A DNA stretch of 64,000 nt. It comes from Alphaproteobacteria bacterium (GTDB lineage: Bacteria; Pseudomonadota; Alphaproteobacteria; JAAXGF01). Made by a program: the position numbers and the translations under genes. This document shows, piece after piece, positions 6,142 through 62,498 of this stretch. The notes under the pieces were generated by a model. It worked only from the letters and a program-made list of their open reading frames with translations, had not been told where the DNA came from and did no database searches. Where the stretch lies: contig CAUVXB020000002.1 of NCBI GenBank assembly GCA_963555825.3, positions 3,328,001 to 3,392,000 of the forward strand. Reading direction: 5' to 3'. Each line of letters begins with the position of its first letter. The stretch's first letter is position 1.

Positions 6142-7328
6142 TACGCCGCCTCCGCGCCGTCCGCCGGCAGGATGTCGGCGCCGATGCTGCCGGCCACTTT
6201 GGCCGCCGAGGCCTTCTCGGTGTCGCGCGCGAGATGCGCATAGCGCGCGGTGGTCTCGATCCTGTTGTGGCCTAACAGCTTCCCGATCATGCTCAGGCTC
6301 TCGCCGAGCGCCAGCGCACGGCTCGCCCAGGAATGCCGCAGGTCATGGATGCGCACGTCGTCCAGCCTGGCCCGGGCACGTACGATCAGCCACGGATCGT
6401 TGACGTTGGTCATGCGCGCGCCCGGCTTCTGCCCGGCGATCACCCACGGGTTGTCCGGAACCCGGGGAATATCTTCCAGCACGCCGGCCACGGCGGGTGT
6501 CAGCGGCACCATGCGCGCGCCGGTCTTGCCGTCGCGCAGCCGTAGCTCCCCCACCGTCCGGTCGATGTCGTCCCACCTGAGCTCCAGCACCTCGTTGCGC
6601 CGGCACCCGGTCAGCACCAGCAGCCGGATCGCCGCCGCCGCATGGAGCGACACCGTCCGCTTCGCCTCCAGCTCATCGACCGCCCGGCCGAGCCGGCAAT
6701 ACTCCTCGTCGGTCAGGAACCGCTCACGCGGGTGCGTCCGGTACTTGCGCACCGCCCGGCATGGGTTCGGCCCGTGCTCCCGCAGGCCCCATTCGACGGC
6801 CAGCGACAGCACCTTGGCCACGATCTTCAGCACCGCGTTCGCCGCATGGGGCGCGCCGCGCATCGCGTAATGCAGTTCCATCACCTGCTCGCGCCCGACC
6901 TCGCCCACAGGCATCCCGCCCAGCGCCGGCAGGATGTGGTTGTCGAGCGCCCGCCGGTAGACCTCCGCGCTCGACGCCCTGCAGTGCGAGGGCACGTAGT
7001 CGCGCATGTAGCGCTCGGCGAGAACGGCCATCGTCGGCTCGGGCTCCGGCGGAGGGGGTATCGGGTCCTCGCCCCGCTTGATGCGGTCGATGGCCTCCGC
7101 CGCCTGGCGCCGCGCCTCGTCGGCGGTGAGTTTCCCGTGCCGTCCAAGCGTCGCCCTCTTCGACCCGCCGGGGCCGCGCGACTGGACGACGTATTTCTTT
7201 AGGCCAGAGGGATAGACCCTGATGCCGAAGCCGGGGAGGTCCCGGTCCCAGAACACGGCGTCGCGATGCTCGACCGACAACGCGTCGACGGTGCGTTTGG
7301 TGATAACCCGTTCCTGGCGTCTCGGCAT
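6141..7328 (-). CDS. Second tyrosine recombinase, translationally coupled to the first
   Basis: Start MPRRQ at 7328; TGCRRNE, HDLRH, LGH and RY; TAATG overlap at 6141. Confidence 0.9.
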   Translation of the reverse strand: MPRRQERVITKRTVDALSVEHRDAVFWDRDLPGFGIRVYPSGLKKYVVQSRGPGGSKRATLGRHGKLTADEARRQAAEAIDRIKRGEDPIPPPPEPEPTMAVLAERYMRDYVPSHCRASSAEVYRRALDNHILPALGGMPVGEVGREQVMELHYAMRGAPHAANAVLKIVAKVLSLAVEWGLREHGPNPCRAVRKYRTHPRERFLTDEEYCRLGRAVDELEAKRTVSLHAAAAIRLLVLTGCRRNEVLELRWDDIDRTVGELRLRDGKTGARMVPLTPAVAGVLEDIPRVPDNPWVIAGQKPGARMTNVNDPWLIVRARARLDDVRIHDLRHSWASRALALGESLSMIGKLLGHNRIETTARYAHLARDTEKASAAKVAGSIGADILPADGAEAA

Positions 7329-7536
7329 GGCGTTTCCGGCTATTCTCGTTCTGCCGCCCGGACGATCCGTAAGCACTATGCAAGCGACCGCCCTCAAACC
7401 GGGGCGCATCATGGCGCGTCCCTGACAGGGACGCAAGCGGGAAATGGCAGCGAAAATCTTCTAGAAACATAGGAGAACCGCTACTTTATCGCACTCCTGC
7501 GCATCTCTGCGCAGCCGTGGCGATGCGGGAGAATTA

Positions 7537-13290: not shown

Positions 13291-14017
13291 CCATCACTTC
13301 TTCTCTCGTCAAGATGGCGATCGCGCGCCGCAGTCGCCTGACTCGCGCCTACTCGGCCGCCTGTCGGTACAACCTTTGAAAACGAACGTTGCCCTGCATT
13401 TCGTCGTCCGCCTCCCCCATCTCATCAAGAATTTCGCGAAGTGTGTATCGGTATTGCGGAGCAATCCCTTCGGGACCAATGACCCTGCTGAGGATCTCGA
13501 GTGTCGGTCCAGGGCGCGACGTCGCCTGTCCGCTCTCGCGAAGGCGAAACAAGTTCGTGTCGATGGGCTGCAGGTAGTCGAGGGCCCAGTCGGTGGCGTC
13601 GGGAAATGCGTCCCCGCACTCCGCAAGCAGGTCCACCATCGCCGTCGCTGTTCCCGGAGTGTTTCGGTCAGCTCGCGCAGGCCAGTACGCCCGAAGCCAC
13701 CGACCCACCTTCTCCCTCCAGACTTCCGCCCGCTCCGCGGCTTCGCCCTTCAGCCGCTCCTGCAGGCTGGCGAGAACCGTCGTCAAAGCGGCTTCCGACA
13801 TCACTCCCACTACAACGTGAACTTCTTCACCGGTCAGTTCGCCGGGAGCCTCAAGGCAGATCGTCATGAACAACAGAGTGAGATTGCGTTCGGTGCGGGC
13901 ATTCAGATTGCCCGCTCGGAAAAGGTCGATGAAGGCTTGCTTGAGAGCGAGGAGTAGGTCAGGTCCGATGGTCCGCGACCAGCCGTATGCGTACCAGAGA
14001 TTGTTCGCTTCCTCTGA

Positions 14018-15180
14018 TACCAACGGCGCAAAATTCTGACTCGCAAGGGATTCCCTTTTTGGGCTGGATGTGATTCAAGGCTGCGGCGAAGGAGATTCGC
14101 CATGTCAGTATGCATTGCTCTTCGGGACGACTACGACAGCATTGAGCTCCGGTGTTTGGCCAAGCACAGTCGCGATCCCCGCCAAGTTCGCCGGCTTTTG
14201 GCCTTGGCGGCGGTTTACGACGGCATGAGCCGAGCGGAAGCCGCTAAGGTCGGCGGCATGGATCGCCAGACGCTGAGAGACTGGGCGCACCGCTTCAACG
14301 ATGAAGGGGCAGACGGCTTGAAGAACCGTCCCGGTGCGGGCCGCCCCCGGCTCTTGACCGACGAGCAGATGGGCGAACTGTCGGTGATCGTCGAAACGGG
14401 CCCCGATCCAGAGATTGACGGTGTGGTTCGCTGGCGGCGGGTTGACCTGAAACGGGTGATCGAAGAACGCTTTGGCGTGATCTATAGCGAGCGGGCGATC
14501 TCCGACCTTCTCGTCGCGCTGTCCTTCTCCCACATCAGCGCCCGGCCGCAGCACCCCAAGCAGGACCAGCGGGTGATCGAGGCGTTCAAAAAAACTTCCC
14601 CCGCACGCTCGCTGCCCACCTAGCCGGTCTGCCCAAGACCAAGCGGGTCGAGATCTGGTTCCAAGACGAGGCCAGGCTGGGACAGAAGAACGGGCGTGTG
14701 CGCATTTGGGCGAAGAAGGGAACAAGGCCACGCCTGCCCGCCGATCAGCGCTACACGAACGCCTACCTCTTTGGCGCAATCTGTCCCATGGGAGCCAAGG
14801 GTGCCGCTCTCATGCTCCCCTTCGCCAACACAGCCGCCATGCAGATGCATCTCGACGAGATCAGCTGCAACGTCGCCGCCAAGGCCCATGGCGTCGTCCT
14901 GATGGACCGCGCCGGGTGGCACAGCACCGACCAGCTCAAGGTCCCCAAGAACCTCACCATCATCCTGCTGCCATCGCGCTCGCCCGAGCTGAACCCGGTC
15001 GAGAACATCTGGCAATACCTCCGCCAGAATTGGCTCTCTAACCGCGTCTTCGAAGATTACGACGCCATCATCGAGGCCGGTTGCCAAGCCTGGAACAAAC
15101 TAATCGACCAGCCCGAGACGATCATGTCCATCGGAATGAGAGATTGGGCGATTTCAGGTCAATAATTAGTGCCGTTGGTA
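14018..15180 (+). mobile_element. IS630-family element
   Basis: IRs TACCAACGGC...GCCGTTGGTA, with TGA on both sides. Confidence 0.9.
14102..15165 (+). CDS. IS630 transposase, probable programmed -1 frameshift
   Basis: HTH orfA, A7 slippery run at 14588-14594, then WFQDEAR, MDRAGWH and SPELNPVE. Confidence 0.88.
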
Positions 15181-16402
15181 TGACTCCCCCGGACGGAAGC
15201 GCGGAATCAGTCTCTCGCTCACCCAGTCCTGATCGACGGCGTACAGGTAGTGCAGCCTCGTAGCAATCATCACTCGGCCGAGGTGTCCGCTTGGCTCCTC
15301 GGTGATCGCGTTGAAGTATCCGCGCACGGGTTCCGGAAGGCGATTGCCGACTCTGGGCCGATGCTTCGATAGTCGAGCGAGTGCCGCGTCGGCGAGTTTC
15401 CCTGCTGCGTCGTTCAATGCATCGGTGAGTGGCTCGTCCAACGCGACGATTTGAGCGGGTGCCCGCCTACGGACGGCGTTCCAGCCCTTTTCCCACAGTT
15501 CGGCGATTTCTCCTTCGCGGTCCGTCCCGTAGGTCCTTGCCAGTTCCTTCACGAGTTCGGCGACCGCGTCTTCTACTTCGTCAAACAGCCAATCCGGAGC
15601 ATTCACAAGACATCGGGCGGCGCGTTCGTGAAGGCGGATGTCTGCCTCCTCTCCTTCCGGTGAGTTTGGAACGGACCACAGGAACCACTTCCAAAAATCT
15701 GCCCGCCACGTTCCTTCCGCCGCGAGTTCCTCCAGGGCCTCGATTGCCTTCTCGGGCTGTGCGCGGGCAAGACCGCGGAATTGGTCCTGGCTCGCGCTCT
15801 CGTCCCGGATTGCCCTCGCAACGTCCGCCACCGTTCCCTCGAGCAGGTCCTGGGGCGCGAACTCCTCATCGCCAATCCATCGTGCTTCGCCCCGCCAGCG
15901 TAGAAACTCGTCACGCTCCGCGTCAGCGTCCCGCTCTACTTCCAATCCTTCGGCGAGCTCTCTCGACTTCTTGTCGAGCCGCGCCCCGGAGACCGAGAGC
16001 TTGTGCAGGCGCAAGGCCTGCTCACGGCGGATCAATGCGGGGTAGTTCGGTGGCGGGTTCCTCGGTTTCGGCTTCGGCCCCTCGTGAATCGCACATACGA
16101 TTTCGACGCGCAGGTCCCGCGGCAGCCTTGCTCCGGCCTTGCGGAACAAGCGCAACACCTCCCGCTGGAGCTCCCAGTTCCAAACGCCACGCGGTCGGCG
16201 AGTGAGGAGAAGGGTCCTCGCCAGATTGATATCGGACTTCGGATCCTCGGTCAGGGCGTGAAGTGCAAGCCTTGTGAATAGTGGCTTGCGGGACAGCACC
16301 CAGCGACGGAGCAGGTTTTCCGCGCGTGCACGGTCGATTGCAGGTAAGCGTTCGTTCAGGCCGTGGAATCAGCGCGGGCGTTTCCATTCGCCCCGGCCGA
16401 TT

Positions 16403-17284
16403 TTAGCGATTGAGGGTGCGTTTCCAATCCCGTCGCAGGGGCCGGAGCCAGACATCCTTTTTAGGCTTGTCGGACTGCCTGTCCCGGTCGTAGCGCCCGC
16501 GCCCCTGGGTGGTCCCGACGCGGGTCCAGCCGGAGGCCCTGTAAACGGCGCCGGTGTAGCGCGGGGTCTCGACGAAGGTCTCGATGAGCACGGGCGTGGT
16601 GTTGTAGCGCTCGGTCCAGTCATCGGGCAGGCGCCGGCGGATGATGGCCAGGATGTGCGAACCCAGGTTGGGGATATTGATCCAGGGCAGGATCAGGAAT
16701 CTCGGGTTGTCGACCACGAAGGGAAGGTTCTTCTCGCGCAGTTGCCGTGTCCATCCGATGAAGTTGTCGCGCGGGGCGAGCTTCCACGCGGCGGTGGAGA
16801 AGCCGAGCATGGCGAGCGGCCAGCCGTCGCGGTCGTGGACGGCGTAGCGCATCTGGGCGCCGACCAGGGTCTTGTATCCGAGATAGTGGTAGCGGGCGAC
16901 GAACTCGTTCCAGAGCTTGCTCTCCCGGGTGCCGCGCACGACGGGGCGCAGGTCGAGCGGACGGACCTTGTCGAGGGTCGTCGGGGCCGGGAACAGCGGC
17001 GCTTCGGTGTCCGGCCCGAAGACGATCGGCCCGGGCCGGTTCTGCCGTCCCTGCGGCGCCGGCAGGGCGATCAGGCCGTCCCTGTGCATGGCCAGCATGG
17101 CGACCCTGGCCATCATGTCCTTGAGGCCGCCGTCGGGCTTGAACCAGCCGATGCGCCGGCAGAACTCCTTCGACAGCATATGGCGGTTCAACGGCGGCGG
17201 CCCGGCGATCAGCGCGCGCAGCAGCGCCATTTCCCCGGCGGTGAAGTCGCGGCCGTAATAACGGCACTCGATCGCGCCGGTCAC
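16403..17284 (-). CDS. DUF4338 (Druantia DruA-like) domain protein
   Basis: YHYLGY, AAWKLAPRDNFIGW, RFLILPW, NLGSHIL, ETFVE and YRASGW..VGTTQGRG motifs; GTGA overlap with the transposase stop. Confidence 0.85.
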   Translation of the reverse strand: MTGAIECRYYGRDFTAGEMALLRALIAGPPPLNRHMLSKEFCRRIGWFKPDGGLKDMMARVAMLAMHRDGLIALPAPQGRQNRPGPIVFGPDTEAPLFPAPTTLDKVRPLDLRPVVRGTRESKLWNEFVARYHYLGYKTLVGAQMRYAVHDRDGWPLAMLGFSTAAWKLAPRDNFIGWTRQLREKNLPFVVDNPRFLILPWINIPNLGSHILAIIRRRLPDDWTERYNTTPVLIETFVETPRYTGAVYRASGWTRVGTTQGRGRYDRDRQSDKPKKDVWLRPLRRDWKRTLNR

Positions 17285-19944
17285 GCCGGCGCCATGAGTT
17301 CGCGCCTGCGCTCCTCGCTCATCGACCATGGCAGCCACGGCGACAGGTCGTCCGGCGGTTTGCGATCGTTCTCCGCGCACGCTGCGAGCCACGTGTCCAG
17401 CCAGCTCAGGATGTCGATGCCATTCATCGAGAGCGTGCCCACCACCGAGTACATGATCGCCGTGAACCTGGCGCCGTCCTCGCTGTCGGAACCGAACGAC
17501 AGCCGTCGCCCTATGGCCGGACCTCGTAACAATCTTTCGGCGCGATTGTTATCCAGAGGCACCTGCGGGCGGTCGACGAACACGCTCAGCCCTTCGCGAT
17601 GGTTCAGCAGCGAGCGCAGCGCCCTGCCCTGGCGCGCCTGGTCCGGCAGGCCGGCCAACTCCCGGGCGGCCTCCGCGAACAGGCCGTCGAGCGCCGCCTT
17701 CAACGCGCCCTGCGCCGCGTCGAACGCCGGCGTCTGGCGCTTGATCACGGGGTCGTAATGAGCCAACCTCGCCTCGTTCAGGCGGTAGACCGACGCGATC
17801 CGCTCGATCCATCCCTGGCACCAGTCCGTCAGTCTCACCTGGCCGGCCGCGCACTCGACAAAATCGCGGCGCATATGGGACCAACAGAATGCAAGGGTCA
17901 CTTTGCCCTCGCGAAGGCGAGCGAGTCGCTTGTAGGCGCTATAGCGATCGCAGACGATGACCGTGTCGAGGAGAGCGTCGCCGAACAGCTTCTGCGCCGC
18001 CTCGGCGCTGCGCGAGGGGTCGATATGGAAAGAGACCGCGTCATTGCTGACCGAGACCCACAGCCAGGCGCGGCTCGAGCGGTCTTCCCCGCGAAGTTCC
18101 TGGACGCGCCAGCTGGTCTCGTCGGCATGGCGCAGCGCCGCCTTGTTCTGGTGCGCAAGGATCGCCTCGGCCAGCGGCTCGAGCAGCGGCACGAACCGCT
18201 TCAGGCTGTCGGCCAGCGTCCCCGGCGAGACCGTCAGCCCTTGGGCGGACATCCACGCGGCAACGCGGTGCACGGGGCGGAAGCAGGCACAGTGCTCGAA
18301 CAGGAAGCGTGCCCAGAAGCTGGTCCCGTAGAGCGTCCTGGGGAACAGCCGCGGCACCGGGGGCGCCGACACTTCCATGGGCGACGACGCGCACTCGCAG
18401 GTCCGGCGCCAGCGCGGACGGCGGATCACGCGCTTGTAGGCCTTGACCTCGATCTCGACGAGGGTGGATTCCTCGGCGCCGTTCGGCGCATAGGGCTGCC
18501 CGCACCGGCCGCAGACGCACGCATCCGGCGGCGGGTTGTGCTCTTCGGTGCGCTCATCGAGCCCGGGCCGCTGGGTGCGGCCGTGGCCGGGCGCGCCGCG
18601 CTGCTGGCCGCGCTTGTGTTCCGAGCCCGGCTTGTCCTGCTGCTCGCTCTTGCGGCCGTAGAGCGCCCTCGACAGCACCGCCCCGGTCGCACGAAGCCTC
18701 TCAAGCTGGACTTCCAGCGTCTCGATCCGGTTCCGCGACGTCTTCGCGCCCTTGCGCAGGCGGGCGTTCTCCCGGGACAGCGACTTGATCGTAGCCTTCT
18801 GGCGCCGCGACCTTCGCAGAGCCCTGCGGAGATCGGCGTCTGCAACGGACAGCGACTTCGACAACGTCTTCCTGACCGCTCGAAGCCCGGCAAGCTCGGC
18901 CTCGAGTGCCTTCCTGATCGCGCGAAGCTTGGCAGGCTGAACCTCCAGCGCCGCTTTCCGGGTCTCCAACTTCCGCATGGTCCTGCGCAGACGGCCGTTG
19001 TCCTTGCGCAGCGCCTCGATCGTCGTCTTCTGGCGCCGCGATCGCCTCAACGCCGCGCGCAGTTGAGCAGCCTCGTCGGACGGCAGCTTCGACAGCGTCG
19101 CCCCGGCCGCCCGAAGCTTGGCGAGCCGGGCCTTCAACTTCTCCTTACCGGCTTTGGACACCTCCAGGGCATGGCGCAGCCAGAAAACCTCGTCGGACAG
19201 CGACCGGGCGCGGGCCTCGGCGTCGCCCAGTATCCTCACCTCCCGGTGGAGCCGAAGGGACTCGCTGGACAGCTTCTTCGCGGTCTCCCTGATGCGCTCC
19301 GTCCTCTCCTTCTCCTGGTCGAGGCGCGTGTTCAGCCGGGCGTTCTCCTTGTCCCGCCGGACCACCTCCTTGTCGAGCCGGCGGAGTTCCGTGCGAAGCG
19401 ACCTGACGGTCTCCTTCTGGTCCGGGGAAGGCTCCAGGACGGTGCGCCGCCGGGGCGGAGCGGGCCACGGCCCGGTCGCGCCCTCACGGGCCTTCGATGC
19501 CGCCAGGGCCTTGCGCAGCCGGGCGTTCTCCTTGCGCAGCGCCCCGGCCGTATCGAAGGCCGACGCGATGCCGGCTTCAGAAAGGAGCGTCTCCAGGCGC
19601 GCCACTTCCGCCTGCAAGGACGGCACGTCCCTTGCCGTGCGGCGGGCTTCCTTCGTCTCTTCGACGGCCTCACTCAGCCTGCGCCGGCAGGCCTTGAACC
19701 GAGACTTCCACGAACCGCCATCGCTGCGGGCGGCCACTTCCGCCCAGCGCAGCTCTTCCGCCCGCGCTTCGGCCGCGTCCGCCCGCGCCCGTTCCCGCTC
19801 ACACTGTGACCGCCAGTCGCGCGGCGCGTGCTCCGGCACCGACACGGGGGACAACCGGACCCCGCCATTACCCTCGACCAGCGTCAGGTTGGTGCCAAAA
19901 TCCTCGTCCAGAACCACCATGCGCACGACGATAGCGCATGGCAA
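17281..19944 (-). CDS. tnpC: IS66 transposase TnpC with a very long coiled-coil N-terminus
   Basis: LYGRKSE, GQQRGAPGHGR, CVCGRCG zinc finger, HADET, VCDRYSAY, CWSHMRRDF, DNNRAERLLR; 887 aa. Confidence 0.92.
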   Translation of the reverse strand: MPCAIVVRMVVLDEDFGTNLTLVEGNGGVRLSPVSVPEHAPRDWRSQCERERARADAAEARAEELRWAEVAARSDGGSWKSRFKACRRRLSEAVEETKEARRTARDVPSLQAEVARLETLLSEAGIASAFDTAGALRKENARLRKALAASKAREGATGPWPAPPRRRTVLEPSPDQKETVRSLRTELRRLDKEVVRRDKENARLNTRLDQEKERTERIRETAKKLSSESLRLHREVRILGDAEARARSLSDEVFWLRHALEVSKAGKEKLKARLAKLRAAGATLSKLPSDEAAQLRAALRRSRRQKTTIEALRKDNGRLRRTMRKLETRKAALEVQPAKLRAIRKALEAELAGLRAVRKTLSKSLSVADADLRRALRRSRRQKATIKSLSRENARLRKGAKTSRNRIETLEVQLERLRATGAVLSRALYGRKSEQQDKPGSEHKRGQQRGAPGHGRTQRPGLDERTEEHNPPPDACVCGRCGQPYAPNGAEESTLVEIEVKAYKRVIRRPRWRRTCECASSPMEVSAPPVPRLFPRTLYGTSFWARFLFEHCACFRPVHRVAAWMSAQGLTVSPGTLADSLKRFVPLLEPLAEAILAHQNKAALRHADETSWRVQELRGEDRSSRAWLWVSVSNDAVSFHIDPSRSAEAAQKLFGDALLDTVIVCDRYSAYKRLARLREGKVTLAFCWSHMRRDFVECAAGQVRLTDWCQGWIERIASVYRLNEARLAHYDPVIKRQTPAFDAAQGALKAALDGLFAEAARELAGLPDQARQGRALRSLLNHREGLSVFVDRPQVPLDNNRAERLLRGPAIGRRLSFGSDSEDGARFTAIMYSVVGTLSMNGIDILSWLDTWLAACAENDRKPPDDLSPWLPWSMSEERRRELMAPA

Positions 19945-22010
19945 ATCGCGTTACCAGCAGAAAGACAGCACCTTGTGGGGCCTCGCCTCAACGTGGGAGA
20001 TGCGCTTGACGGGACCCATTCCACGGCCTGAACGAACGCTTACGATTGCAGCGACCTCAAGATAGGCATCCCGCACCAGGTCAATCAGATGGCCCAAGCC
20101 CCCAGTCTCGCGGTGCCGGTTCTGGTCATGTGCCTTGATCGAAGCCCGGCACAAAGATGAATCCGAATAGATCGCGTCGTCTTCCTCTGCAAGCGCGAGC
20201 GCCTGTTCGAGGTGGGTCGTCAGCCTCTCCGCGTGGCGCGCGAGTACGCCTTCCTTTCGGAGGATCCTCTCAACATAGAACTCGGTGTTCTCGCCTCCGA
20301 CCACCAGCTTCGGATGGCCGCACGCGTCGATGGGCGCGATGGGTTCCGTGTTTCCGTCGAAGTACCGTGCGAATTGGACGTGGGTGGTAGGCCCCGGGAC
20401 CACGATGAGTTCTGGTGCCAGATCCGCAATGACCTCATCCTCGACGCGGCGCCGTTCTGGGTCGGAGGCCGCTGCCAAGTAGTGCTTGGAGCTCCAGAGG
20501 ACTCCCCTGAGGTTTCTCGGTTCGTAGTTCGACAGGATCGTCCAAAGAAGCCTGAGTCGCGGCGGGATGGGTGACTTGGCGTCGCTGAGGTTCGCCTCAA
20601 CCATGTCCCGCAGAGCCGGGTGCATGCGTCCGCCGTTCTTCAACATCCAGGCGAGGACCTGCGGCACGTGCAGGTGACGAGCAATCCAGTACGCGAGGCA
20701 GCGCCTCGTAGTGTCCAACGTGTTGGGGTTCTGGGACTGATATCCGCTATCGACCAACCGCACGAACGCGGGGCCCTCAGCTCCTGCGCCCGGGTTCGCG
20801 TCAGCGGCATCGCACGACAGCAGGCCCGCCTCCTGGAACGCGTCGAGCCATCTCTCGATCTTGGGGAAGTCTCCTTCGTCAACGGTAGGCGGCGCTTCGG
20901 CAAGCGCCGCCGCAGCCACCGGATCTTCCAATGCCCAGACGACGCGTTCGACCACAGGGTCGTTCGGTCCCGCCGGGAGTATGCCGATGTCGTTGAGCGC
21001 AATCTGTGGACGGGCATGGAAGGGGTCGCTTCGGATCCGGGCCCACGCGATCAAGGTCTCGCTCAGGAGGCGGTGCCCCTCCCGGTCGTCGTACAGAACC
21101 GGCCTGACGTTCTTCGCATGCCAGCTGTCGCGTGCCCTGTTCTTGCCTTCGGGTGTGCCGTTGTGGGGTGCGAACGCATAGGCGTTTGCGAAGCGCGCGC
21201 CCTTGTCGCGCTCGGCGGCAAGAGCATCGACCAGGTAGCTCATGACCGGATCGGCCACGCTGTACCCGACGAAGACGACGGTGAACTCGCGGAAGAGTTC
21301 GGTGACGAACCGAGCCGCCCAGCGCTCGGTCAGGTATGCACGCCCGAAATCGGCCGCAGTGAGGACGAGGTTCGCTCCGCCCTCGTCGGGCACGATGCGT
21401 CCGTGCAGGTGCACGAGGCTTGACCAGTTGTACCGCGTTGGCACGGGCAATTTTGGGGCGGCATCGACGCTGAGATTCGCTTCTCCGGCTTCGACAAACC
21501 GGTTGTCGAAGTTCGTTGTAACGAGGCGCGTCCCTCCTTCGGTCCTCGACAGGGTGAGTAGCGCCTCATGGACCCGAAGGGGAGCCGTTGCAGGTCTTGA
21601 GAGCCGCTCGATGACAGTTCCACGCAGCGCCTCAGGTCCCAGCCGATCGCTTCGCTCCAGCAGACTGAGCGCCTTGTCGAATTGTGGTCTCCGGCGGCTT
21701 CGATCCGGTTCATTGCGGTGAAGTGCCTCGTGTTCGACTTCATCGGCCTCGATTCGGTTCGCTTCGTAGACGTGCTCCACCAGCTCCTCGAAGTTGGGGA
21801 GATTCGACCCATCCCCGACCGAAACCCCCGCACCGCAGAAGAACACCACCGAACCCTCATCGACCTCATTCATGAGGTGGACTGGGATCCTCGGGCCCTC
21901 GGGTACGAGTTCAGGCATGGCGGATCCTTGCTTGCTCTTCTCTCATCGTGCTCGTTCCGCGGAGTCGTGTAGCCGGTTCCAGGTCGATGCAACCCATCGC
22001 AGTTCACCCA

Positions 22011-22150: not shown

Positions 22151-23525
22151 GAGCTATTGTCAAAAGTTGTGTATGGGCTGATCATGCGGCGGCGCGATCC
22201 TGGCGTTCTCCATCTACGAATTTGACGCCGCGAATGATCTCGGCGAGATGGTTCGATCCATCGAGTTTTCTCCATTTTCTCTGAGCGCACTGGCATAGTT
22301 TGAAGACCATGGCCATCGCCGTCTTGCGCGACAGGCAGCCCTTGGTCCGGTAGGTGCGCAGACGAACCGTGGCGAACGTGCTCTCGATGGGGTTGGTCGT
22401 GCGTACATGCTTCCAGTGCTCGGCGGGGAAGTCGTAGAACGTCAGCAGGACGTCGCGGTCCTTGGCCAGGCAGGCCGCGGCCTTGTCGTACTTCGGCCCG
22501 TAGGCTTCCAGGAAGAAGTCGAAGGCGCTCTCGGCATCCTTCCTGGTTTCGGCCATCCAGATGTCTTGCAGGCGCCCCTTGGCTTTCTTTTGCAGACCCT
22601 TGGGCAGCTTGTTCAAGACGTTGCCCGTCTTGTGAACCCAGCAGCGTTGCTCGCGGGCGCCTGGGTAGACTTGGCGGAGCGCCTTCCAGAAGCCGAGCGC
22701 GCCGTCGCCGAGCGCCAGTTGCGGACCCATTTCAAGGCCGCGCCGCTTGAGATCGAGCAGAACTTCGAGCCAGGACTGCTCACTTTCGCGATAGCCGTCG
22801 GCGATGGCGATCAGTTCCTTCTGTCCCTTGTCCGTGGCCCCGACGATCACCAGGATGCACTGCTTCTCTTCCTCCATGCGGGCGCTGAAATAGATGCCGT
22901 CCACCCAGAAATAGACGTAGCGCTTGGCCGTGAGGTCGCGCCGTTGCCAGCGCTCCGCCTCAACCCCCCAGACCTCTTTCAGCCGGGTGATCGTGGAGGC
23001 CGAAAGCCCCGGCGCGGAGCTCCCCAGGAGCGCCGCCAAGGCTTCCCCGAAGTCGCCGGTGGAAATGCCCTTCAGATACAGCCATGGCAAAAGGTCTTCC
23101 AGGCTCTTGGCGCGGCGCAGATAGCGCGGCAGGATCGCCGACGTGAAGCGGATGGCGCCGTCCCCCCGGTCCCGCACACGGGGTTGGCGCACGCTCACCG
23201 GGCCGATCCCGGTCTGGATGAAGCGTTCCGGCAGATATCCATTGCGGACAACCCGGCGGCGGCCGGCGGCGTCAACAAGCGCCGCATGGCTACCCAAAAA
23301 CACGGAGACCTCGGCCTCAACGGCTTGGGCCAACAACTCGCGAGCTCCAGCTTGTAGGACTTCCGTCAACGGATCTTTCTGAAAATCAGATGGGTTTTGA
23401 AAAGCAACAACGGTATTCTCTTTCATGGCGTATCCTTCCTTGGCTTAGCTCAAGTGGTGACATCAACAATCACCAGGATACGCCGCCTTCATTTCAACGC
23501 CGTACACAAGATTCGGTTATAGCTC
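22151..23525 (-). mobile_element. IS256-family element
   Basis: Ends GAGCTAT...ATAGCTC; 9-bp TSD CGATCATCG at 22142-22150 and 23526-23534. Confidence 0.9.
22182..23426 (-). CDS. IS256 (mutator) transposase
   Basis: RNGY, LYLKGISTGD, WVDG, GDGALGFW, QRCWVHK and RTTNPIES motifs. Confidence 0.95.
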   Translation of the reverse strand: MKENTVVAFQNPSDFQKDPLTEVLQAGARELLAQAVEAEVSVFLGSHAALVDAAGRRRVVRNGYLPERFIQTGIGPVSVRQPRVRDRGDGAIRFTSAILPRYLRRAKSLEDLLPWLYLKGISTGDFGEALAALLGSSAPGLSASTITRLKEVWGVEAERWQRRDLTAKRYVYFWVDGIYFSARMEEEKQCILVIVGATDKGQKELIAIADGYRESEQSWLEVLLDLKRRGLEMGPQLALGDGALGFWKALRQVYPGAREQRCWVHKTGNVLNKLPKGLQKKAKGRLQDIWMAETRKDAESAFDFFLEAYGPKYDKAAACLAKDRDVLLTFYDFPAEHWKHVRTTNPIESTFATVRLRTYRTKGCLSRKTAMAMVFKLCQCAQRKWRKLDGSNHLAEIIRGVKFVDGERQDRAAA

Positions 23526-23528
23526 CGA

Positions 23529-24437
23529 TCATCGGCACTCCACCTCAGTCCAGGGGCCTCCGGGAGGCCACGAGGCAACCTCTGTGCGGGCCAGCACGGG
23601 CTGCAGGAAGGTGCGCAGATCATTGTTGACCTGGACGAGTGAAGCGGACGCTATTGCGAGCCGGTCGCGCGCCAGGAAGGCCCGCCACTGGGCTTCCTTC
23701 TCAAGGGCAAAACTATCGCTGAGGCCGACAGGTACTTGTTCCGGCAAGGGGGTTCGGCGTCGCTCGAAGGTCCGACGGATGGCGTCCGCCAGGTTGTCGC
23801 CTTCGAACGCGAATGTCTGCGCGATCATCCAGAGGTCGTAGAAATCCTTCATGCGGCTGTTCGCGATACCGAGCGAGACGATCGCTTCAGTCTTCTCGGC
23901 GACGACCGTTTCAGGGGGATAAGCGCGTAGGACAGGCGCGGGCGCGTCGAGAAGGGCCGGGTATTCGATCTCGATTGGCTCAGGCGTGATCACGTCGCCA
24001 AAACCGACGTCGATCTGGATGGGCAGTCGCGCCCCGGCGATGGTTGCGCCGGTTCTGACGCGCACACCGGGATATTCGTCTTCGTCGCGGATTGGAGCGG
24101 CTTCGACGCCTGCAACGTCGAAGACGACCCCATCGTCGGGTACCTCCACAGAACAGATGGAGCGGATGCTTGCCGCAACCATTGCGGGATCGGGATCGCC
24201 ATGACCCAGCAGGTCAAGGTCACGGGTCGGTCGGAAGGGATCGTCCTGCCAGATTGCGAAGAGCATCGCACCCTTCAGGACAAACCGTTCGCGCTGGTCG
24301 GAGACGCTGAGTCGGTAGAGCAATCGCTCGAGCGCGTAACGGGTAAGGAGAATTTGAAAATCGGTCTGTTCGACGCGGGCGCGCGCGAGCAGTCGGGCGC
24401 GCACAGAGGCGCCGATATTGCGAAGCTCACGTGCCAT
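23529..24437 (-). CDS. abiEii: Type IV TA toxin AbiEii (nucleotidyltransferase)
   Basis: YALERLLYRL, FVLKGA, RPTRDLDLLG, IDVGFGD, AEK and NSRMKDFYD. Confidence 0.92.
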   Translation of the reverse strand: MARELRNIGASVRARLLARARVEQTDFQILLTRYALERLLYRLSVSDQRERFVLKGAMLFAIWQDDPFRPTRDLDLLGHGDPDPAMVAASIRSICSVEVPDDGVVFDVAGVEAAPIRDEDEYPGVRVRTGATIAGARLPIQIDVGFGDVITPEPIEIEYPALLDAPAPVLRAYPPETVVAEKTEAIVSLGIANSRMKDFYDLWMIAQTFAFEGDNLADAIRRTFERRRTPLPEQVPVGLSDSFALEKEAQWRAFLARDRLAIASASLVQVNNDLRTFLQPVLARTEVASWPPGGPWTEVECR

Positions 24438-25050
24438 CGGCGACCATCGCTTCGACATAGGGCCGCATCACGGACCAGACACGCGCCGTGCGAGCGAATT
24501 CCCAGAGCTGGTCGGGTGTGACGCGCCCGCTGCGGAGTCCTTCGCGGAGTCCTTCCAGCGCGATGTCGAGTCCGATCTTGTTGCGATACCGGAAGCAGTC
24601 GACGATCGACTTGGCGGGCTCGAATATTGGGACCTCAATACCCTCGATGAGATGCCGCTTCACCCCTCCCGCGAGGGCGTGGCCGCTGAATCGCACGAAG
24701 TGGACCGGGGGGTATTCGACGTTGGGCTTCCATCCGGTGCGGTCGATGGCGATCCAGACAGCGGAGGGCATTTGGAGTGTCAGTTCATGAAACTGGAGCG
24801 CGGATGTAAGGCAGATCACTCCCCTGGGTACGCGGGCTGAGGCTTCTGCAAGGCTGCGTCGGGGATCCGGAATCGCGTCGACGAACTGATAGAGGCCGCG
24901 CGCAACGCGCGCCACGACGCCCTCGCGAACCAGCCGGGCAACGGTCTCGGGCCCAACGCCAGCGTTGCGAAGATCGCGCATGCGGACTAGTCCCCTCTGG
25001 CGACAGAGACACAGGACCATGTCGCGCTGTTTCGTCGGATTAGGTGACAT
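24427..25050 (-). CDS. abiEi: Type IV TA antitoxin AbiEi
   Basis: N-terminal wHTH (RVARGLY), SALQFHELT, DCFRYRNKIGLD; overlaps the toxin start. Confidence 0.9.
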   Translation of the reverse strand: MSPNPTKQRDMVLCLCRQRGLVRMRDLRNAGVGPETVARLVREGVVARVARGLYQFVDAIPDPRRSLAEASARVPRGVICLTSALQFHELTLQMPSAVWIAIDRTGWKPNVEYPPVHFVRFSGHALAGGVKRHLIEGIEVPIFEPAKSIVDCFRYRNKIGLDIALEGLREGLRSGRVTPDQLWEFARTARVWSVMRPYVEAMVADGT

Positions 25051-25071
25051 TGGCTCTGCTACAATGAACAA

Positions 25072-38546: not shown

Positions 38547-39539
38547 ATGCTACGGATCCACGACTTGACGGTTTCGTTCGGAATTCCGCCGACGCTCTTG
38601 CACGTCGTCCATGGCGTCGATCTGGAGGTTGGCGATGGCGAGATTCTCGGACTGGTCGGAGAGAGTGGCAGCGGCAAGAGCCTGACCTGCCTTTCGATCA
38701 TGCAGCTCCTCGGCCCCAACGCCGTGTTGGAGGGCCGCATAGAATTCAACGACCAGGATATGCTTCAACTCGACGAAGCAGGGATCACGCGGATACGCGG
38801 GCGCGAGATCGCAATGATCTTCCAGGACGCCATGGGCTCGCTCAATCCAGTGCAAACCATCGGAAAACAACTCCGCGAGGCGTTGCGGTTGGACGCTGCG
38901 CCCGCTGACGACGCCGCCTCGAACGACGAACGATCGAAGAGCGAATCGATCCGGCTTCTCGGCGAGGTCGGCATCCCCGAACCGGCCGAGCGGCTGCGCG
39001 AGTATCCGCACCAGCTCTCGGGCGGGATGAATCAACGTGCCCTGATCGCCATGATGCTCGCGCGCAATCCGAGCCTGTTGATCGCCGACGAGCCGACGAC
39101 GGCGCTCGATGTGACGATTCAAGCGCAGATCCTTCGTTTGCTCGGGGATCTGAGAGATCACCGCGGCATGTCGATTATTCTGGTCACTCACGATCTCGGC
39201 GTCGTGGCCGAGACCTGCGATCGCGTTGCGGTGATGTATTGCGGCCGCGTCGTCGAAACCGGAACCGTCGATGAGGTGTTCAAGGCACCGCGTCATCCCT
39301 ACACCCTGGGGCTTTTGAATTCGAGGCCACGGATAGATCGGGAGGTGAAAGCGCTGCAGCCGATCGAAGGCGTGGTGCCCTCGCCTTTCGCGATGCCCCC
39401 GGGCTGCGCGTTCCAGCCACGGTGCCCCCGGGCGACAGAGGCTTGCGGCCGCGAACAACCGAGCTTCGAGCGCGATACGATGGGGCATGGATTTATGTGC
39501 TTTCATCCCGCGACGAACAGCGCCGAGCGGTCCGGGTGA
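38547..39539 (+). CDS. ABC transporter ATP-binding protein (DppD-like)
   Basis: GESGSGKS, LSGGMNQR, DEPT and HPYT. Confidence 0.93.
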   Translation: MLRIHDLTVSFGIPPTLLHVVHGVDLEVGDGEILGLVGESGSGKSLTCLSIMQLLGPNAVLEGRIEFNDQDMLQLDEAGITRIRGREIAMIFQDAMGSLNPVQTIGKQLREALRLDAAPADDAASNDERSKSESIRLLGEVGIPEPAERLREYPHQLSGGMNQRALIAMMLARNPSLLIADEPTTALDVTIQAQILRLLGDLRDHRGMSIILVTHDLGVVAETCDRVAVMYCGRVVETGTVDEVFKAPRHPYTLGLLNSRPRIDREVKALQPIEGVVPSPFAMPPGCAFQPRCPRATEACGREQPSFERDTMGHGFMCFHPATNSAERSG

Positions 39540-40552
39540 CGAGCGTGACGGCCTCTTACATCGCCGATCCGAACGACATGCCGGTCCTCCAGGTCGAGAA
39601 CCTCACGCGTCATTTTAGTGCCGGCCGGCGCAGCCTTTTCGGCGAACGGCAAACCGTGAAGGCCGTGGACGGCATATCCTTCGAGGTGAAGCGGGGCGAA
39701 GTGTTCGGCATCGTGGGGGAGAGCGGATGCGGTAAGTCCACGGCATCCAAGGCCATCCTCAACATTCATCCTCCGCAAGCGGGCCACGTCAGGCTCAACG
39801 GCATCGACCTGACGGCGCTCTCCGAACGAGAATGGCGCGAGATGCGCCAGAGGATTCAGTATGTGTTCCAGGATCCTCTTGGCGCGCTCGATCCGCGTAT
39901 CAAGGTGATCGATCAGGTGATCGAGCCGCTGAAGATTCATCGCATGGGCACGCCATTGGAATGCAAGGAAACGGCCTTCAGGCTGCTTCATTCGGTCGGG
40001 CTGCTCGACGAGCAGCTGGCGAAGTACCCCCATGAGCTCAGCGGCGGCCAGCGCCAGCGTGTCGTGCTCGCCCGCGCGCTCATTCTCGAACCGGAGCTGT
40101 TGATCTGCGACGAACCGATCTCCGCGCTCGACGTCTCGATCCAGGCGCAGGTGGTCACCCTGCTGCAACGCCTGCGCGCCGAGCTTGGCCTAACGATTCT
40201 TTTTATCAGTCACGATCTCAGCATCGTGCGTTACCTCTGTGATCGTGTCGCGGTGATGTATCTCGGGCAGATCGTCGAGATGGCGTCCGTCACGGAGCTC
40301 TTCGAATCCCCCAAACACCCGTATACCCGGGCGCTGATCTCGGCGATCCCGATTCCGGAACCGGGGATGGAGCGTGAGCACATCTTCCTGGAGGGCGAAC
40401 CTCCGAGCCCGATCGATCCGCCGCCGGCCTGCCGGTTTCACGTGCGGTGTCCTTTCAGCGCTCCGTTGTGCGGCCAACGGGCGCCGGAAATGATCACCTA
40501 CCCCGGCGGTCGCATGGTCGCGTGTCACCTGGTCAGCGGGGAGATCGGCTGA
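39536..40552 (+). CDS. ABC transporter ATP-binding protein (DppF-like)
   Basis: GESGCGKS, LSGGQRQR, DEP and C-terminal Cys cluster; GTGA overlap with the previous gene. Confidence 0.92.
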   Translation: MTSVTASYIADPNDMPVLQVENLTRHFSAGRRSLFGERQTVKAVDGISFEVKRGEVFGIVGESGCGKSTASKAILNIHPPQAGHVRLNGIDLTALSEREWREMRQRIQYVFQDPLGALDPRIKVIDQVIEPLKIHRMGTPLECKETAFRLLHSVGLLDEQLAKYPHELSGGQRQRVVLARALILEPELLICDEPISALDVSIQAQVVTLLQRLRAELGLTILFISHDLSIVRYLCDRVAVMYLGQIVEMASVTELFESPKHPYTRALISAIPIPEPGMEREHIFLEGEPPSPIDPPPACRFHVRCPFSAPLCGQRAPEMITYPGGRMVACHLVSGEIG

Positions 40553-41484
40553 TGTCCCTGGTGTTCTATGCGCAGAAGATTTTCCGCGCACTGCTCACCG
40601 TGTGGGCCGTCGTCACCTTCGTTTTCATAATCCTTCGAATCTCGGGTGATGCGGCGATCGAAATCCTCGGCGTCGACATCGGCCCGGAGGCGATCGAAGC
40701 CTTCAGGCGGCGATGGGGGCTCGATCAACCGATATGGAAGCAATACCTGATCTATTTCGGCAATCTGCTCCAGGGCGATTTCGGCATCTCCTTGGTCGAC
40801 GGGCGGCCCGCATTGGAGGTCGTGCTCGATCGCGTCCCGAAGACCCTGGCCCTCATGGTGCCGACGACCATTCTCACCCTTGGGATCGGTATTCCCGCCG
40901 GCATTTACGCGGCCCTGCACCGCAACAGCTGGATCGACCGTGGCACCATGGCCGTCTCCGTCATGAGTTTCAGCCTGCCAAACTTCGTGGTCGGTATATT
41001 CCTCATCCTGCTGTTCTCGGTGACCTTGAGATTGCTGCCGACCGCGGGGAGCGAGACCTGGCTGCACTACATCATGCCGGTGATCACGATGTCGACCGCC
41101 GACGCGGCCATCTTCGCGCGCTTCAGTCGCTCGGCCATGCTCGAAGTCCTCAACCAGCCTTACATGCGAACCGCACTCGCCAAAGGCATCCCGTGGCCCA
41201 CCGCCGTGCGGCGGCACGCCGTGCCGAACACGGCGATTCCCACGGTCACCATCGCCGGCTTCTTCGTCGGCTCGATGATCGCGGGCGGCGTGATCACCGA
41301 GAACGTGTTCGCCTGGCCGGGTGTCGGGCGCTTGTTGGTTTCCGCCGTCGGCTACCGGGACACGGCGGTGGTCCAAGTCATCATGATCCTGATCGCGGTA
41401 TCGATGGTCACCACGAACCTCGTTATCGACATCATGTACGGCTGGCTCGACCCCAGGGTGCGCAGCCTGAGAACCGGTGATTAG
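40552..41484 (+). CDS. ABC transporter permease (DppB-like)
   Basis: GLDQPIWKQY, GDFGIS, YMRTALAKG and FAWPGVG. Confidence 0.92.
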   Translation: MSLVFYAQKIFRALLTVWAVVTFVFIILRISGDAAIEILGVDIGPEAIEAFRRRWGLDQPIWKQYLIYFGNLLQGDFGISLVDGRPALEVVLDRVPKTLALMVPTTILTLGIGIPAGIYAALHRNSWIDRGTMAVSVMSFSLPNFVVGIFLILLFSVTLRLLPTAGSETWLHYIMPVITMSTADAAIFARFSRSAMLEVLNQPYMRTALAKGIPWPTAVRRHAVPNTAIPTVTIAGFFVGSMIAGGVITENVFAWPGVGRLLVSAVGYRDTAVVQVIMILIAVSMVTTNLVIDIMYGWLDPRVRSLRTGD

Positions 41485-41495
41485 GAGGCGCGCGG

Positions 41496-42392
41496 ATGAC
41501 CGAACGGCCTGAAGCGACAGCAAGCGTCGAGATCGCGAAGCGCGGCGGGATCATCCGTTCGATCCGGAACCTTCCGTTCATGGTCGTGCTGTCCGCCATG
41601 TCTCTCTTCGGCCTGATCGTGGTGGCGCTCGGCGCCGACTGGATCGCGCCTTACGACTACCAGGCGATCGACCTACGCGGGCGCCTCGTCCCGCCGTTCT
41701 GGGCCGAAGGCGGCAGCGTGGTACACCTCCTGGGCACTGACGACCTGGGCCGCGACATGCTCAGCCGCCTGATCTCCTCCGTGCGCATGAGCCTGTTCGT
41801 TGCGCTGCTGGGCACGGTGATCGGCGCCATACTCGGCACCACCCTGGGTTTCATGGCGGCCCATTTCCGCGGTTGGGTGGATGACCTGGTGATGGCCGCC
41901 ATCGATTTTCAGGCGGCGCTTCCGTTCATGATCCTGGCGCTTGCGGTCGTGGCGACACTCGGCAACAGCCTCACGCTCTTCATCGGGCTTATGGGGATCT
42001 ACGGCTGGGAACGGTATGCGCGCCTGACGCGCGGTTTGACCCTGTCGGCGGTCACCCACGGATACGCCGTCGCCGTGCGGACACTGGGCGCCGGGCCCCT
42101 GCGGATTTACGGGCGGCACATCCTGCCGAATATAGCCAATGCCTTGATCGTCAACATGACGCTCAACTTCCCGCAGACCATTCTGTTGGAAACATCCCTC
42201 AGCTTCCTCGGCCTCGGCATACAGCCACCGCTGACGAGCCTCGGGAACATGGTGGGATTCGGTCGGGACTACCTGCTGACCGCGTGGTGGATCGCCGTCT
42301 TCCCCGCCCTCGCGATCTTCCTCGCGACGCTTGCAATGAGCATTTTGGGCGATTGGGTCCGCGACCGGCTCGACCCCACATTAAAGGACTAG
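41496..42392 (+). CDS. ABC transporter permease (DppC-like)
   Basis: HLLGTDDLGRD, HILPN and LSFLGLG. Confidence 0.92.
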   Translation: MTERPEATASVEIAKRGGIIRSIRNLPFMVVLSAMSLFGLIVVALGADWIAPYDYQAIDLRGRLVPPFWAEGGSVVHLLGTDDLGRDMLSRLISSVRMSLFVALLGTVIGAILGTTLGFMAAHFRGWVDDLVMAAIDFQAALPFMILALAVVATLGNSLTLFIGLMGIYGWERYARLTRGLTLSAVTHGYAVAVRTLGAGPLRIYGRHILPNIANALIVNMTLNFPQTILLETSLSFLGLGIQPPLTSLGNMVGFGRDYLLTAWWIAVFPALAIFLATLAMSILGDWVRDRLDPTLKD

Positions 42393-54190: not shown

Positions 54191-55506
54191 TACCACCGTT
54201 CCACCGCCAAGGGAACGGTGGTATGATTTCCATGAATTTGAAGGGCATCTGGGGAATGTCGGATGAATCCGTAGTTTCCTCCGCACGGCAGGTGATGAAG
54301 CAGAAGATCCGATGCCGTCCGTCAGAAGATCGACAGCAGAGTGTACGGTGTTCCTTTGTTCCTTGCCTATCCGGTTTACACCCACACCCACTAGGGCTAG
54401 AATGGGCGCAAACCGGATATAGGGGAGCGCGCCATGGATGTTCTCGACCGCGCCGATCTCCCATTCCCGCATTCGCTACCCGAGTTCCAGCGACTTTTCC
54501 CCGATGATGCGGCCTGCGCCGCCTACCTGGAGAAAGCCCGCTGGGGAGACGGCTTTGCCTGCCCGCACTGCGGCACGGCGGGAGAGCCGTTCCACTTTGA
54601 AAACCGCCCTGGCGTCCTGCGCTGCCGCAAGTGCCGCCAGAACACCGGGCTGACGGTGGGAACAGTGATGGAGCGTAGCCACACTCCGCTGAACGTCTGG
54701 TTCTGGGCCGCTTATCTGGTCGCCAGTCAGACGCCCGGCATGTCCGCCGTGCAGTTTCAGCGGCAACTTGGTCTTTCGCGCTACGAGACGGCCTTTCAAA
54801 TTCTCCACAAGCTCCGCTCGGGCATGGTGCGGCCCAACCAAGACAGGATCGGTGGACAGCCCAAGAACCATGTTGAGGTGGACGAAACCTGGGTTGGCGG
54901 GCGAACGCGTGGGGAAGGCCGTGGTGTTCACCACAAGGTTCTCGTCTCCTGTGCCATCGAGGTGCGTCATCGAAAGCCGGGCACCAAGCTCGACAACCGG
55001 AAAGACGGACGCTATGCCGGACGCGTTCGGCTCGCCGTCGTGCTCGACCGTAGCGCCGAGTCGCTCTGTGGGTTCGTCGAGAGCACCGTCGCGCCGGGAT
55101 CGCTGATCGTTACTGACGATTGGAGCGGCTATGCTGGCCTCGGTAAGCGCGGCTATGAGCACTTCGCTGTTGCCGAGTGTGGTGATCCAGAGGTTGCCGA
55201 GCAATACCTGCCGATCATCCATCTGGTTTTCGCCAACCTGAAGACGTGGCTGATCGGTATCCACCACGGCGTTAGCCACCAGCACCTACAAGCCTACCTC
55301 AACGAGTTCACCTTCCGCTTCAACAGGCGGTTCTACCCGTTCAACGCCTTCCGCTCATTGCTCGGCATCGCGGGCGACACCTCTGCTCCAACCTATGCCG
55401 AGCTTTACTCGGGAGAGTGGCGGCACCCTACATGTAGCGGTCATGGGCGTTAACCGGATAGGCAAGCTTTGTTCATCTAGAATTTGATGATGATGAGAGT
55501 GTCTGA
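54191..55506 (+). pseudogene. 3' remnant of the gene upstream of the sacsin-like gene, split by IS1595
   Basis: Removing the IS gives ...SVRCSFVHLEFDDDESV*, whose stop overlaps the GTG at 55499. Confidence 0.5.
54362..55466 (+). mobile_element. IS1595-family element, copy 2 (transposase 54434-55453)
   Basis: Same IRs, length and protein as copy 1; 8-bp TSD CTTTGTTC. Confidence 0.93.
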
Positions 55507-61738: not shown

Positions 61739-62080
61739 TCAACGCTGCTTATCTGACCGCCTTGGCAGACTGATACGACTGTAAGTCCGCTCCAATAGGA
61801 CAGCGACGGCATCAACGCCAAGCCATTTCGCCATACCAATTAGTCCAATGATCTCCAAAAGGAAAACTAAAATAGAGGGCACCCAATCCAAGTGCTGGAA
61901 TGCAGCGATATCAATGACAACTATAAGAGCCAAAATCCAGTAGAAGCGTTCCTCCCGGCGGCTGTCTCGTTCGGACTCAATGGCTTTCTCGAGCGCGCCT
62001 GCCCCTTCGTCACTCTTTGTAGCGACTACCGAACGGTAGAACTCTTCATGCAGATTTTTGGGCCGATTTTCGTCGCTCAT
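61739..62080 (-). CDS. Small two-TM membrane protein, candidate toxin
   Basis: Two hydrophobic helices; overlaps the Panacea gene by 35 nt. Confidence 0.65.
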   Translation of the reverse strand: MSDENRPKNLHEEFYRSVVATKSDEGAGALEKAIESERDSRREERFYWILALIVVIDIAAFQHLDWVPSILVFLLEIIGLIGMAKWLGVDAVAVLLERTYSRISLPRRSDKQR

Positions 62081-62498
62081 ATTCCGCCTTAATAGATTTG
62101 TTTGGGATGACTACTCCTCGCAACCCAGGCACGTAGTGCTCAGCCCAAGCCCCTTCTTCCCAGTGGGTAATTGCGACTAGCTTGCTGGTCCGCTCTCTCC
62201 CCAATCCAGCGACCACATCCGCAAGTAGATTCCCCTCGTAGCTGTCAGAAATATTATCTTCGGACCAAAACACATTCTGCACTGGTCTGCTCCCGAATGC
62301 CTTTACTTTGTGATAAAGGACGGGAACTACGGGGCCAAAATCCCACGCTTCAAAATTCTCGCAGATTAAGGGCTCGTCTCTTTCGCCCAACCGCCACATA
62401 TGAGCGATGTAGAGAAGTTTTTGAATTGCCAAGTTGGAGAATTCCCAGTCTCCAGCTTCGCAGATTTTCCGACCAGCCTGTAGGGCGGTGACTTCCAT
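62046..62498 (-). CDS. Panacea (DUF4065/GepA/SocA-like) antitoxin
   Basis: NLAIQKLLY, FEAWDFGPVVPVLY and LVAITH..GAW. Confidence 0.88.
   Translation of the reverse strand: MEVTALQAGRKICEAGDWEFSNLAIQKLLYIAHMWRLGERDEPLICENFEAWDFGPVVPVLYHKVKAFGSRPVQNVFWSEDNISDSYEGNLLADVVAGLGRERTSKLVAITHWEEGAWAEHYVPGLRGVVIPNKSIKAEYERRKSAQKSA

Follow-up and report, generated by a model that had tools for sequence, protein, structure and literature searches.

Introduction

Canonical members of the IS66 family of insertion sequences (IS), such as IS66, IS679 and ISRm14, are built of three genes, tnpA-tnpB-tnpC, and their terminal inverted repeats of about 20-30 bp start with GTAAGC. The ISBst12-type group of this family is characterized by tnpC alone. 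Insertion sequences have few accessory proteins, and the mechanism of the IS66 family is poorly understood. Transposition of IS10 and IS50 is known to be controlled by Dam methylation. Here we describe an IS66-family element from a 64,000-nucleotide stretch (contig CAUVXB020000002.1, positions 3,328,001 to 3,392,000) of the genome of an alphaproteobacterium (GCA_963555825.3), in which a tnpC gene is coupled to a second gene for a 293-aa protein of Pfam family DruA (PF14236, DUF4338) that resembles Mom of phage Mu in its predicted structure. The whole stretch is called the window and, unless said otherwise, positions are those within it. We consider it rather probable that the second gene, co-inherited with tnpC, is integral to the element and that its product is a Mom-type enzyme which is made together with the transposase and acts at the transposition complex or close to it, with DNA as its most likely substrate. 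Such a partnership between a transposase and a Mom-like enzyme seems undescribed, as no description of the coupled tnpC/PF14236 layout was found in the searched literature, with many subscription journals, ISfinder and TnCentral lying outside the search.

Structure and mobility of the element

The ends of the element form the longest and only perfect inverted repeat in the interval 15800-20600 (26 nt, 100% complementary), the next inverted repeats listed there being 29-31 nt with just 70-83% complementarity. A preliminary description of the locus had proposed that these repeats are flanked by an 8-bp target-site duplication (TSD, GATTGCAG) and enclose exactly two genes, with the GTG start of the PF14236 gene overlapping the TGA stop of tnpC, and all of this was confirmed (Table 1); the overlap is 4 nt long and reads GTGA. 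Neither tnpA nor tnpB is present between the inverted repeats, judging from the list of open reading frames (ORFs) and from Pfam, and there is no space for them because the non-coding DNA between the genes and the element ends comes to 59 and 99 nt only. TnpC matches both PF03050 (DDE_Tnp_IS66, E 2.1e-58) and NF033517 (E 8e-82, 275 bits vs a cut-off of 180), its DDE domain spans residues 537-826 and it contains four invariant cysteines (C478, C481, C516 and C518). The Pfam families LZ_Tnp_IS66, zf-IS66 and IS66_C gave no match in TnpC, and a coiled coil of about 400 aa is present. Since gene callers start near-identical TnpCs at MVVLDEDFG, the ATG at 19920 is the probable start, giving a protein of 879 aa instead of 887. 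In its DDE_Tnp_IS66 transposase, its 8-bp TSD and its 26-nt inverted repeats starting with GTAAGC(G) the element is the same as canonical IS66 members, but it differs from them in being without tnpA/tnpB, in the long coiled coil of TnpC and in the Mom-like gene located downstream.

The unit of 3700 bp is present in eight full copies, 99-100% identical, in the 6.04-Mb genome, in which several fragments and one further copy, split by an insertion of 1.46 kb, are also present. TSDs of 8 bp and of unrelated sequence flank six of the eight intact copies as well as the split one. In a contig from a public DNA run position 16334 is directly joined to 20043, and because the 3708 nt skipped correspond to the IS and one TSD copy, this contig represents the unoccupied site. 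The repeated full-length copies with TSDs, together with the empty-site contig, bear out the proposal that tnpC and the second gene are mobile as one unit, and the element is a real, recently active insertion sequence of the IS66 family.

Several observations concern individual copies. One of them (C2:2488608-2492308) has one extra base which leaves its Mom-like gene in two frames (matches 1-184 and 181-293), and it is the sole intact-length copy with a broken second gene. Two full copies stand head to tail with the end of a truncated copy, 9 and 7 bp apart (C1:1317492-1321322 and C2:3230706-3234760), which recalls the junctions between inverted repeats or the tandem dimers of copy-out-paste-in elements. 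Read depth over the IS in the DNA run with the empty site is about 60-100 times that of the flanks. Contigs from RNA libraries cover the IS and not the flanks, which DNA carry-over could explain given this depth, and they were not counted as proof of transcription. In one such contig (run X17) position 16640 is joined to 19871 with 3 extra letters between them; this may be a miniature form of the IS that arose by internal deletion, and it is seen in a single contig with 30 letters on its shorter side.

Table 1. Positions of the element, its parts and the interrupted target gene in the window.
Feature	Position	Strand	Remarks
Left TSD copy, GATTGCAG	16336..16343	.	8 bp; empty-site contig
Terminal inverted repeat, Mom-like-gene end, GTAAGCG...	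16344..16369	.	identical ends in all genome copies
Mom-like PF14236 gene, 293 aa	16403..17284	-	winged-helix-like ~1-78, linker, Mom-like GNAT ~104-293
tnpC, IS66-family DDE transposase	17281..19944	-	887 aa from first TTG
tnpC stretch for long N-terminal coiled coil	18624..19809	-	~residues 45-440, internal repeats
Terminal inverted repeat, tnpC end	20018..20043	.	26-nt repeat partner
Right TSD copy, GATTGCAG	20044..20051	.	8 bp
Dsr1-like SIR2 gene, N-terminal piece	20044..21918	-	insertion target; SIR2_2; NF041818 positions 3-454
Dsr1-like gene, middle piece	15166..16343	-	NF041818 positions 668-1038; in frame with N-terminal piece after IS removal
IS630-like element	14102..15165	+	helix-turn-helix (HTH) and DDE_3 in two frames; second insertion in Dsr1-like gene; approximate extent
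Dsr1-like gene, C-terminal piece	13349..14023	-	NF041818 positions 1043-1259 of 1263

Co-inheritance of the two genes

To follow the pair beyond this genome we used a search profile made of a 14-member alignment and collected the 79 closest genome loci, in which identity to the window protein is 46-95% and which come from 53 isolates in 7 named phyla. A match to IS66 TnpC ends at most 200 nt upstream on the same strand at 72 of the 79 loci, two of which are internal-deletion derivatives, while the remaining seven comprise two that are linked on inspection (L078 and L083), two at a contig edge and three without TnpC. By our own count 60 of the 72 TnpC junctions show an ATGA, GTGA or TTGA overlap. 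When three genomes were searched by the transposase model only, all 24 TnpCs of this type adjoined the gene, and no PF14236 gene adjoined the canonical or DUF6444-type IS66 copies in the same three genomes. Open frames of the linked TnpCs measure 540-891 aa and database relatives 520-963 aa, with an N-terminal coiled coil of highly variable length that contains internal repeats.

Divergences of TnpC and of the Mom-like protein are correlated (r 0.94 for 48 unique pairs, which are non-independent and come from the protein-first sample). The Mom-like protein is the more conserved of the two in 98.8% of 1128 comparisons and total tree length for 40 pairs is 16.8 for it vs 24.4 for TnpC, so the second gene is under strong purifying selection, with a stronger constraint than that on the transposase itself. 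In the paired trees of these 40 pairs, a comparison suggested in the preliminary description, 15 of 37 splits are in common, vs a mean of 0.24 and a maximum of 3 in 200 label shuffles. The two genes are thus co-inherited and co-diverge.

Within the IS66 family the same genome also harbors a canonical copy (L110), which carries TnpB_IS66 and HTH_Tnp_1 and falls as outgroup in the TnpC tree. It had been suggested that the second gene replaces tnpA/tnpB. This does not agree with the tree, in which the nearest TnpCs without the gene belong to TnpC-only elements and the tnpA-tnpB-tnpC type is the outgroup. The existence of these TnpC-only relatives also rules out a TnpB supplied in trans as a necessity. 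With the ISBst12 type the element shares the lack of tnpA/tnpB, and TnpC-only elements are nested in the sister clade; it differs in having two coupled genes, of which the second co-diverges with TnpC. Another IS66 type in this genome (C2 ~3293600-3295800; L111:2138-4338) has a 512-aa TnpC with DUF6444; a 4-nt overlap joins its start to an upstream ORF of 221 aa that matches no Pfam family, and this layout is repeated in the genome of a member of another family (L114, G018).

The second protein

Pfam family PF14236 is matched by residues 104-267 of the 293-aa protein (E 2.6e-39), for which NCBIfam holds no model. DUF4338 was previously called a GNAT domain by the Aravind laboratory (PMC10853773). 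In an AlphaFold2 model made from 36 homologues (predicted local distance difference test score, pLDDT, 90.9) residues ~104-293 have the GNAT fold. GNATs were listed by Foldseek at E 2e-6 and below; phage Mu Mom (8bv8) took rank 4 and had the highest query TM-score among the matches listed; in structure comparison of the predicted model Mom came first by 1.5 Z units, and among viral structure models (BFVD) a Salmonella-phage Mom was found at rank 8. The earlier link to Mom-like GNATs is therefore borne out by comparison of the predicted structure, Mom being the best solved match. Also among the BFVD matches (E 1e-6 to 1e-5) are several 500-700-aa phage proteins with the annotation homing endonuclease or endonuclease-like, a hint that this fold has also been joined to another kind of mobile-DNA nuclease.

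According to PMC13219725, Mom moves glycine from Gly-tRNA onto N6 of adenine in duplex DNA, and its residues H58, Y59, R111, S124, D149, R151 and Y159 are important for activity (GenBank numbering of Mom is 10 lower than the one used there). The alignment with Mu Mom obtained by hhalign is short, has a probability of 2.5% and was used for residue register only. Together with MAFFT it places PNLGS209 at RNSES (S124), E239 at D149 and Y248 at Y159; in both alignments G-x-x-Y-R-A-A/S-N-W is matched with G-V-V-Y-Q-A-S-N-F of Mom, and R242 is one or two positions off the aligned place of R151. By eye, YHYLG (H133, Y134) corresponds to KHYS (H58, Y59), and N-x-R195-F-L-I-L to L-N-R(111)-M-W-L. Among 55 transposase-linked family members R195 and E235 are kept in all 55, H133 and S209 in 54, R/K242 in 52, and E/D239 and Y248 in 51. 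At the level of sequence profiles the Pfam Mom model PF25680 did not match the 293-aa protein at E up to 1; of 36 relatives, 14 were matched weakly (E 0.0023 at best), and one relative reaches E 7.7e-6, the best score of a relative being 26.1 bits, under the cut-off of 27.1. A profile search of the PDB with the 36-member alignment yielded two chance-level matches only (E 0.84 and 1.6). Conservation across the family extends to the N-terminal 78 residues, which are modelled with confidence (pLDDT 87), and their structural matches are almost all winged-helix domains, although weak (Z at most 5.2). The protein has the predicted GNAT fold in common with Mom and, in these alignments, the S/D/Y motifs and the signature G-x-x-Y-x-A-x-N-W/F, while it differs in its identity of only ~13% and in the extra N-terminal winged-helix-like domain.

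From the model and these residues we predict that the second protein is catalytically active, and this is likely. As its acceptor we tentatively favor DNA, because of the analogy with Mom and the DNA-binding-like N-terminal domain. The protein could instead be an acyltransferase for a protein or a small molecule (the transposase, a nucleoid protein or a polyamine) or a non-catalytic DNA-binding adaptor, which would regulate the transposase with the bases left untouched. We think this quite unlikely: the lead of Mom in the structure comparison and the motifs and signature aligned with it speak against another acceptor, and the near-invariance of the putative catalytic residues speaks against an adaptor. 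One more kind of GNAT should be considered, namely toxins of the AtaT/TacT type, which acylate charged tRNA and could stabilise the element by growth arrest or addiction. GNAT toxins bind aminoacyl-tRNA and the donor of Mom is a charged tRNA (PMC13219725), and the island in which the element is located has other toxin-antitoxin genes (AbiE, SocA). Yet the element is without an antitoxin gene, eight intact copies exist in one genome and fusion to a transposase, described below, is ill-suited to a free toxin, which makes this explanation very improbable.

The family beyond IS66

The family comprises 8310 representative clusters at 50% identity (E up to 1e-3). In a related genome ISAs1-like (610 aa), IS4-type (775 aa) and Tn5-like (623 aa) transposases carry the domain as an N-terminal fusion, and the 610-aa fusion of a Mom-like GNAT with an ISAs1-like transposase is found there (G003, e.g. 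L023:1596-3425) in dozens of copies. A TnpC-DruA fusion in the same G003 was rejected, since the 973-aa "open frame" proved to be a long open frame in another reading frame. Among database representatives there are fusions in which the complete 290-aa module precedes Tn5-like and IS4 transposases, and others in which it follows IS66 TnpC. In a phylum sample of 300 genomes drawn evenly, PF14236 was present in 19 genomes besides the window's own, with 26 distinct genes. Fourteen of the 26 are beside or fused to transposases: five ISAs1-like, three DUF6444-type IS66 (with the gene upstream), two ISLre2/UPF0236, two Tn5-like and two IS4-like. Four are true DruA or DruA-DndF/SspF fusions and the other eight are either fragments or come from contigs whose length does not allow a judgement. 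The family is thus associated with at least five transposase families. In RefSeq its members are named "DUF4338 domain-containing protein" or are hidden inside "ISAs1 family transposase".

The second protein had been described as DruA-like, but it has the Pfam domain alone in common with DruA of Druantia. The PADLOC DruA models (PDLC00001/00002) match 96 residues (140-235) of it with 25 bits, vs 369-967 bits over the full length for true DruAs of the phylum sample, which have 680 or more aa. DruA of Druantia type I, also of the PF14236 family, is ~680 aa long vs 293 aa, and the element has no druB-E, none of which was found inside the inverted repeats or among the neighbouring ORFs of the window by Pfam scan. 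In a MAFFT alignment the true DruAs (n=4), whose alignment is less certain, are without the Mom-type residues. The true Druantia-type DruAs and DruA-DndF/SspF fusions without these residues are L130, L131, L132 and L141. From these alignments, DruA may be an inactivated derivative of a transposon-borne enzyme.

Loss of the second gene and its possible role

A different picture of linkage is obtained when the search starts from the transposase. Out of 80 metagenome loci of TnpC relatives (28-45% identity) 21 were not assessable, and among the other 59 the gene was found downstream at 35 by script and at one more (L218) by eye, and upstream at one. It is therefore carried by 37 of the 59 assessable relatives and absent from 22, despite at least 500 nt of room. 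Elements without the gene are TnpC-only (554-574 aa) and form at least four well-supported subclades nested among the carriers; a constraint that unites all 18 of them in a single clade lowers the log-likelihood by 463 units (approximately unbiased test, p 1.2e-5). The simplest reading of these trees is one old acquisition followed by repeated loss, because position and overlap are the same in both deep clades and the two genes co-diverge, although the root is not secure and gains are conceivable. Whether lost or gained, the second gene is not required for transposition, as sublineages without it are nested among carriers. Of the proposal that the gene is a dedicated accessory of this IS lineage, the co-inherited and co-diverging partnership holds, but the gene is not indispensable.

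The absence of the gene from these 22 relatives and its repeated loss while the IS stays weigh against a role bound to the transposase, and they limit what can be claimed: the gene would help the element without being needed for its movement. The loss of the gene without the IS fits with cargo, in which case the Mom-like enzyme would modify DNA of the whole genome or of the replicon that carries it, for anti-restriction or defence, and the IS would be its carrier only. Anti-restriction is the known role of Mom (PMC13219725, PMC7261163), and the Pfam family takes its name from a defence protein. Transfer is frequent, given that 7 phyla harbor near-identical elements (>80% protein identity), and the strong constraint on the gene could stem from selection at the level of the host or the carrier. 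On the other hand, fusion to several transposase families and translational coupling, which links the amount of the enzyme to that of a transposase, are not expected of cargo, Druantia partner genes are absent from between the inverted repeats and the match to true DruA is weak, and only 2 of 72,556 records of a plasmid collection have the gene. We therefore regard cargo as unlikely. Among the three functions first proposed, i.e. control of transposition, evasion of restriction and stand-alone defence, the last has the least support, given the fusions of relatives to other transposase families.

These fusions to unrelated DDE transposases are also the reason why we prefer action at the transposition complex to free cargo, and a direct role of the Mom-like protein together with the transposase appears fairly probable. 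A complex prediction for the catalytic part of TnpC and the Mom-like protein scored 0.00 and is uninformative on binding. In the mechanism that we propose, a branch of IS66 would work without tnpA/tnpB and with an integral, vertically inherited second gene. A winged-helix-like domain and a Mom-type GNAT would be produced along with the transposase, through the 4-nt overlap here and through fusion in other IS families, and the enzyme would act at or near the transposition complex. The most likely reaction of the enzyme there would be transfer of an acyl or aminoacyl group to DNA, in the manner of Mom, which uses Gly-tRNA to modify N6 of adenine. Such a mark on the element ends, the donor or the target could tune or protect transposition, while the chemistry of transposition itself would not need the enzyme. 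Dam control of IS10 and IS50 is a functional analogy only, in which base modification at the ends gates transposase binding and expression; there the methylase belongs to the host, whereas here the putative modifier is encoded by the element or fused to its transposase.

Insertion target and surrounding island

As was also suggested in the preliminary description, the element inserted into an anti-phage gene, and the matches to NF041818 identify it as Dsr1-like. Removal in silico of the IS and one TSD copy restores an open frame of 1014 aa. This gene for an anti-phage sirtuin is now in three pieces, the two breaks being the IS66 element and the IS630-like element.

The 64-kb window is an island full of IS elements, with IS21-like istA/istB sets and genes of IS6-type, IS256-type (22185-23426), three IS1595-type and IS5/IS1182-like elements. 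It also contains a tyrosine integrase (6144-7436), an AbiEii/AbiEi pair (23532-25071), an oligopeptide ATP-binding cassette transporter (38547-42389) and a SocA/Panacea antitoxin (62049-62498). Two adjacent large genes at 55484-61390 may form an undescribed defence pair; the sole family match is a sacsin-like P-loop domain in the product of one (1185 aa) and NOV_C in that of the other (780 aa).

Significance

The name "DruA" in Pfam suggests defence, while in the phylum sample 14 of the 26 genes are linked to transposases and just four are true DruA. A wider interpretation, which is speculative and which we would put forward with considerable doubt, is that DUF4338 represents a large overlooked class of transposase-tethered Mom-type DNA-marking enzymes, possibly using charged tRNA, which take part in transposition in at least five IS families, with Mom of phage Mu and the apparently inactivated DruA of Druantia as its offshoots. 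That a probable enzyme is more conserved than the transposase, and is joined by coupling or fusion to transposases of several unrelated families, suggests that transposition includes a step or a control that has gone unrecognised. If the proposed role is true, insertion sequences would possess a self-encoded layer of epigenetic control or protection.

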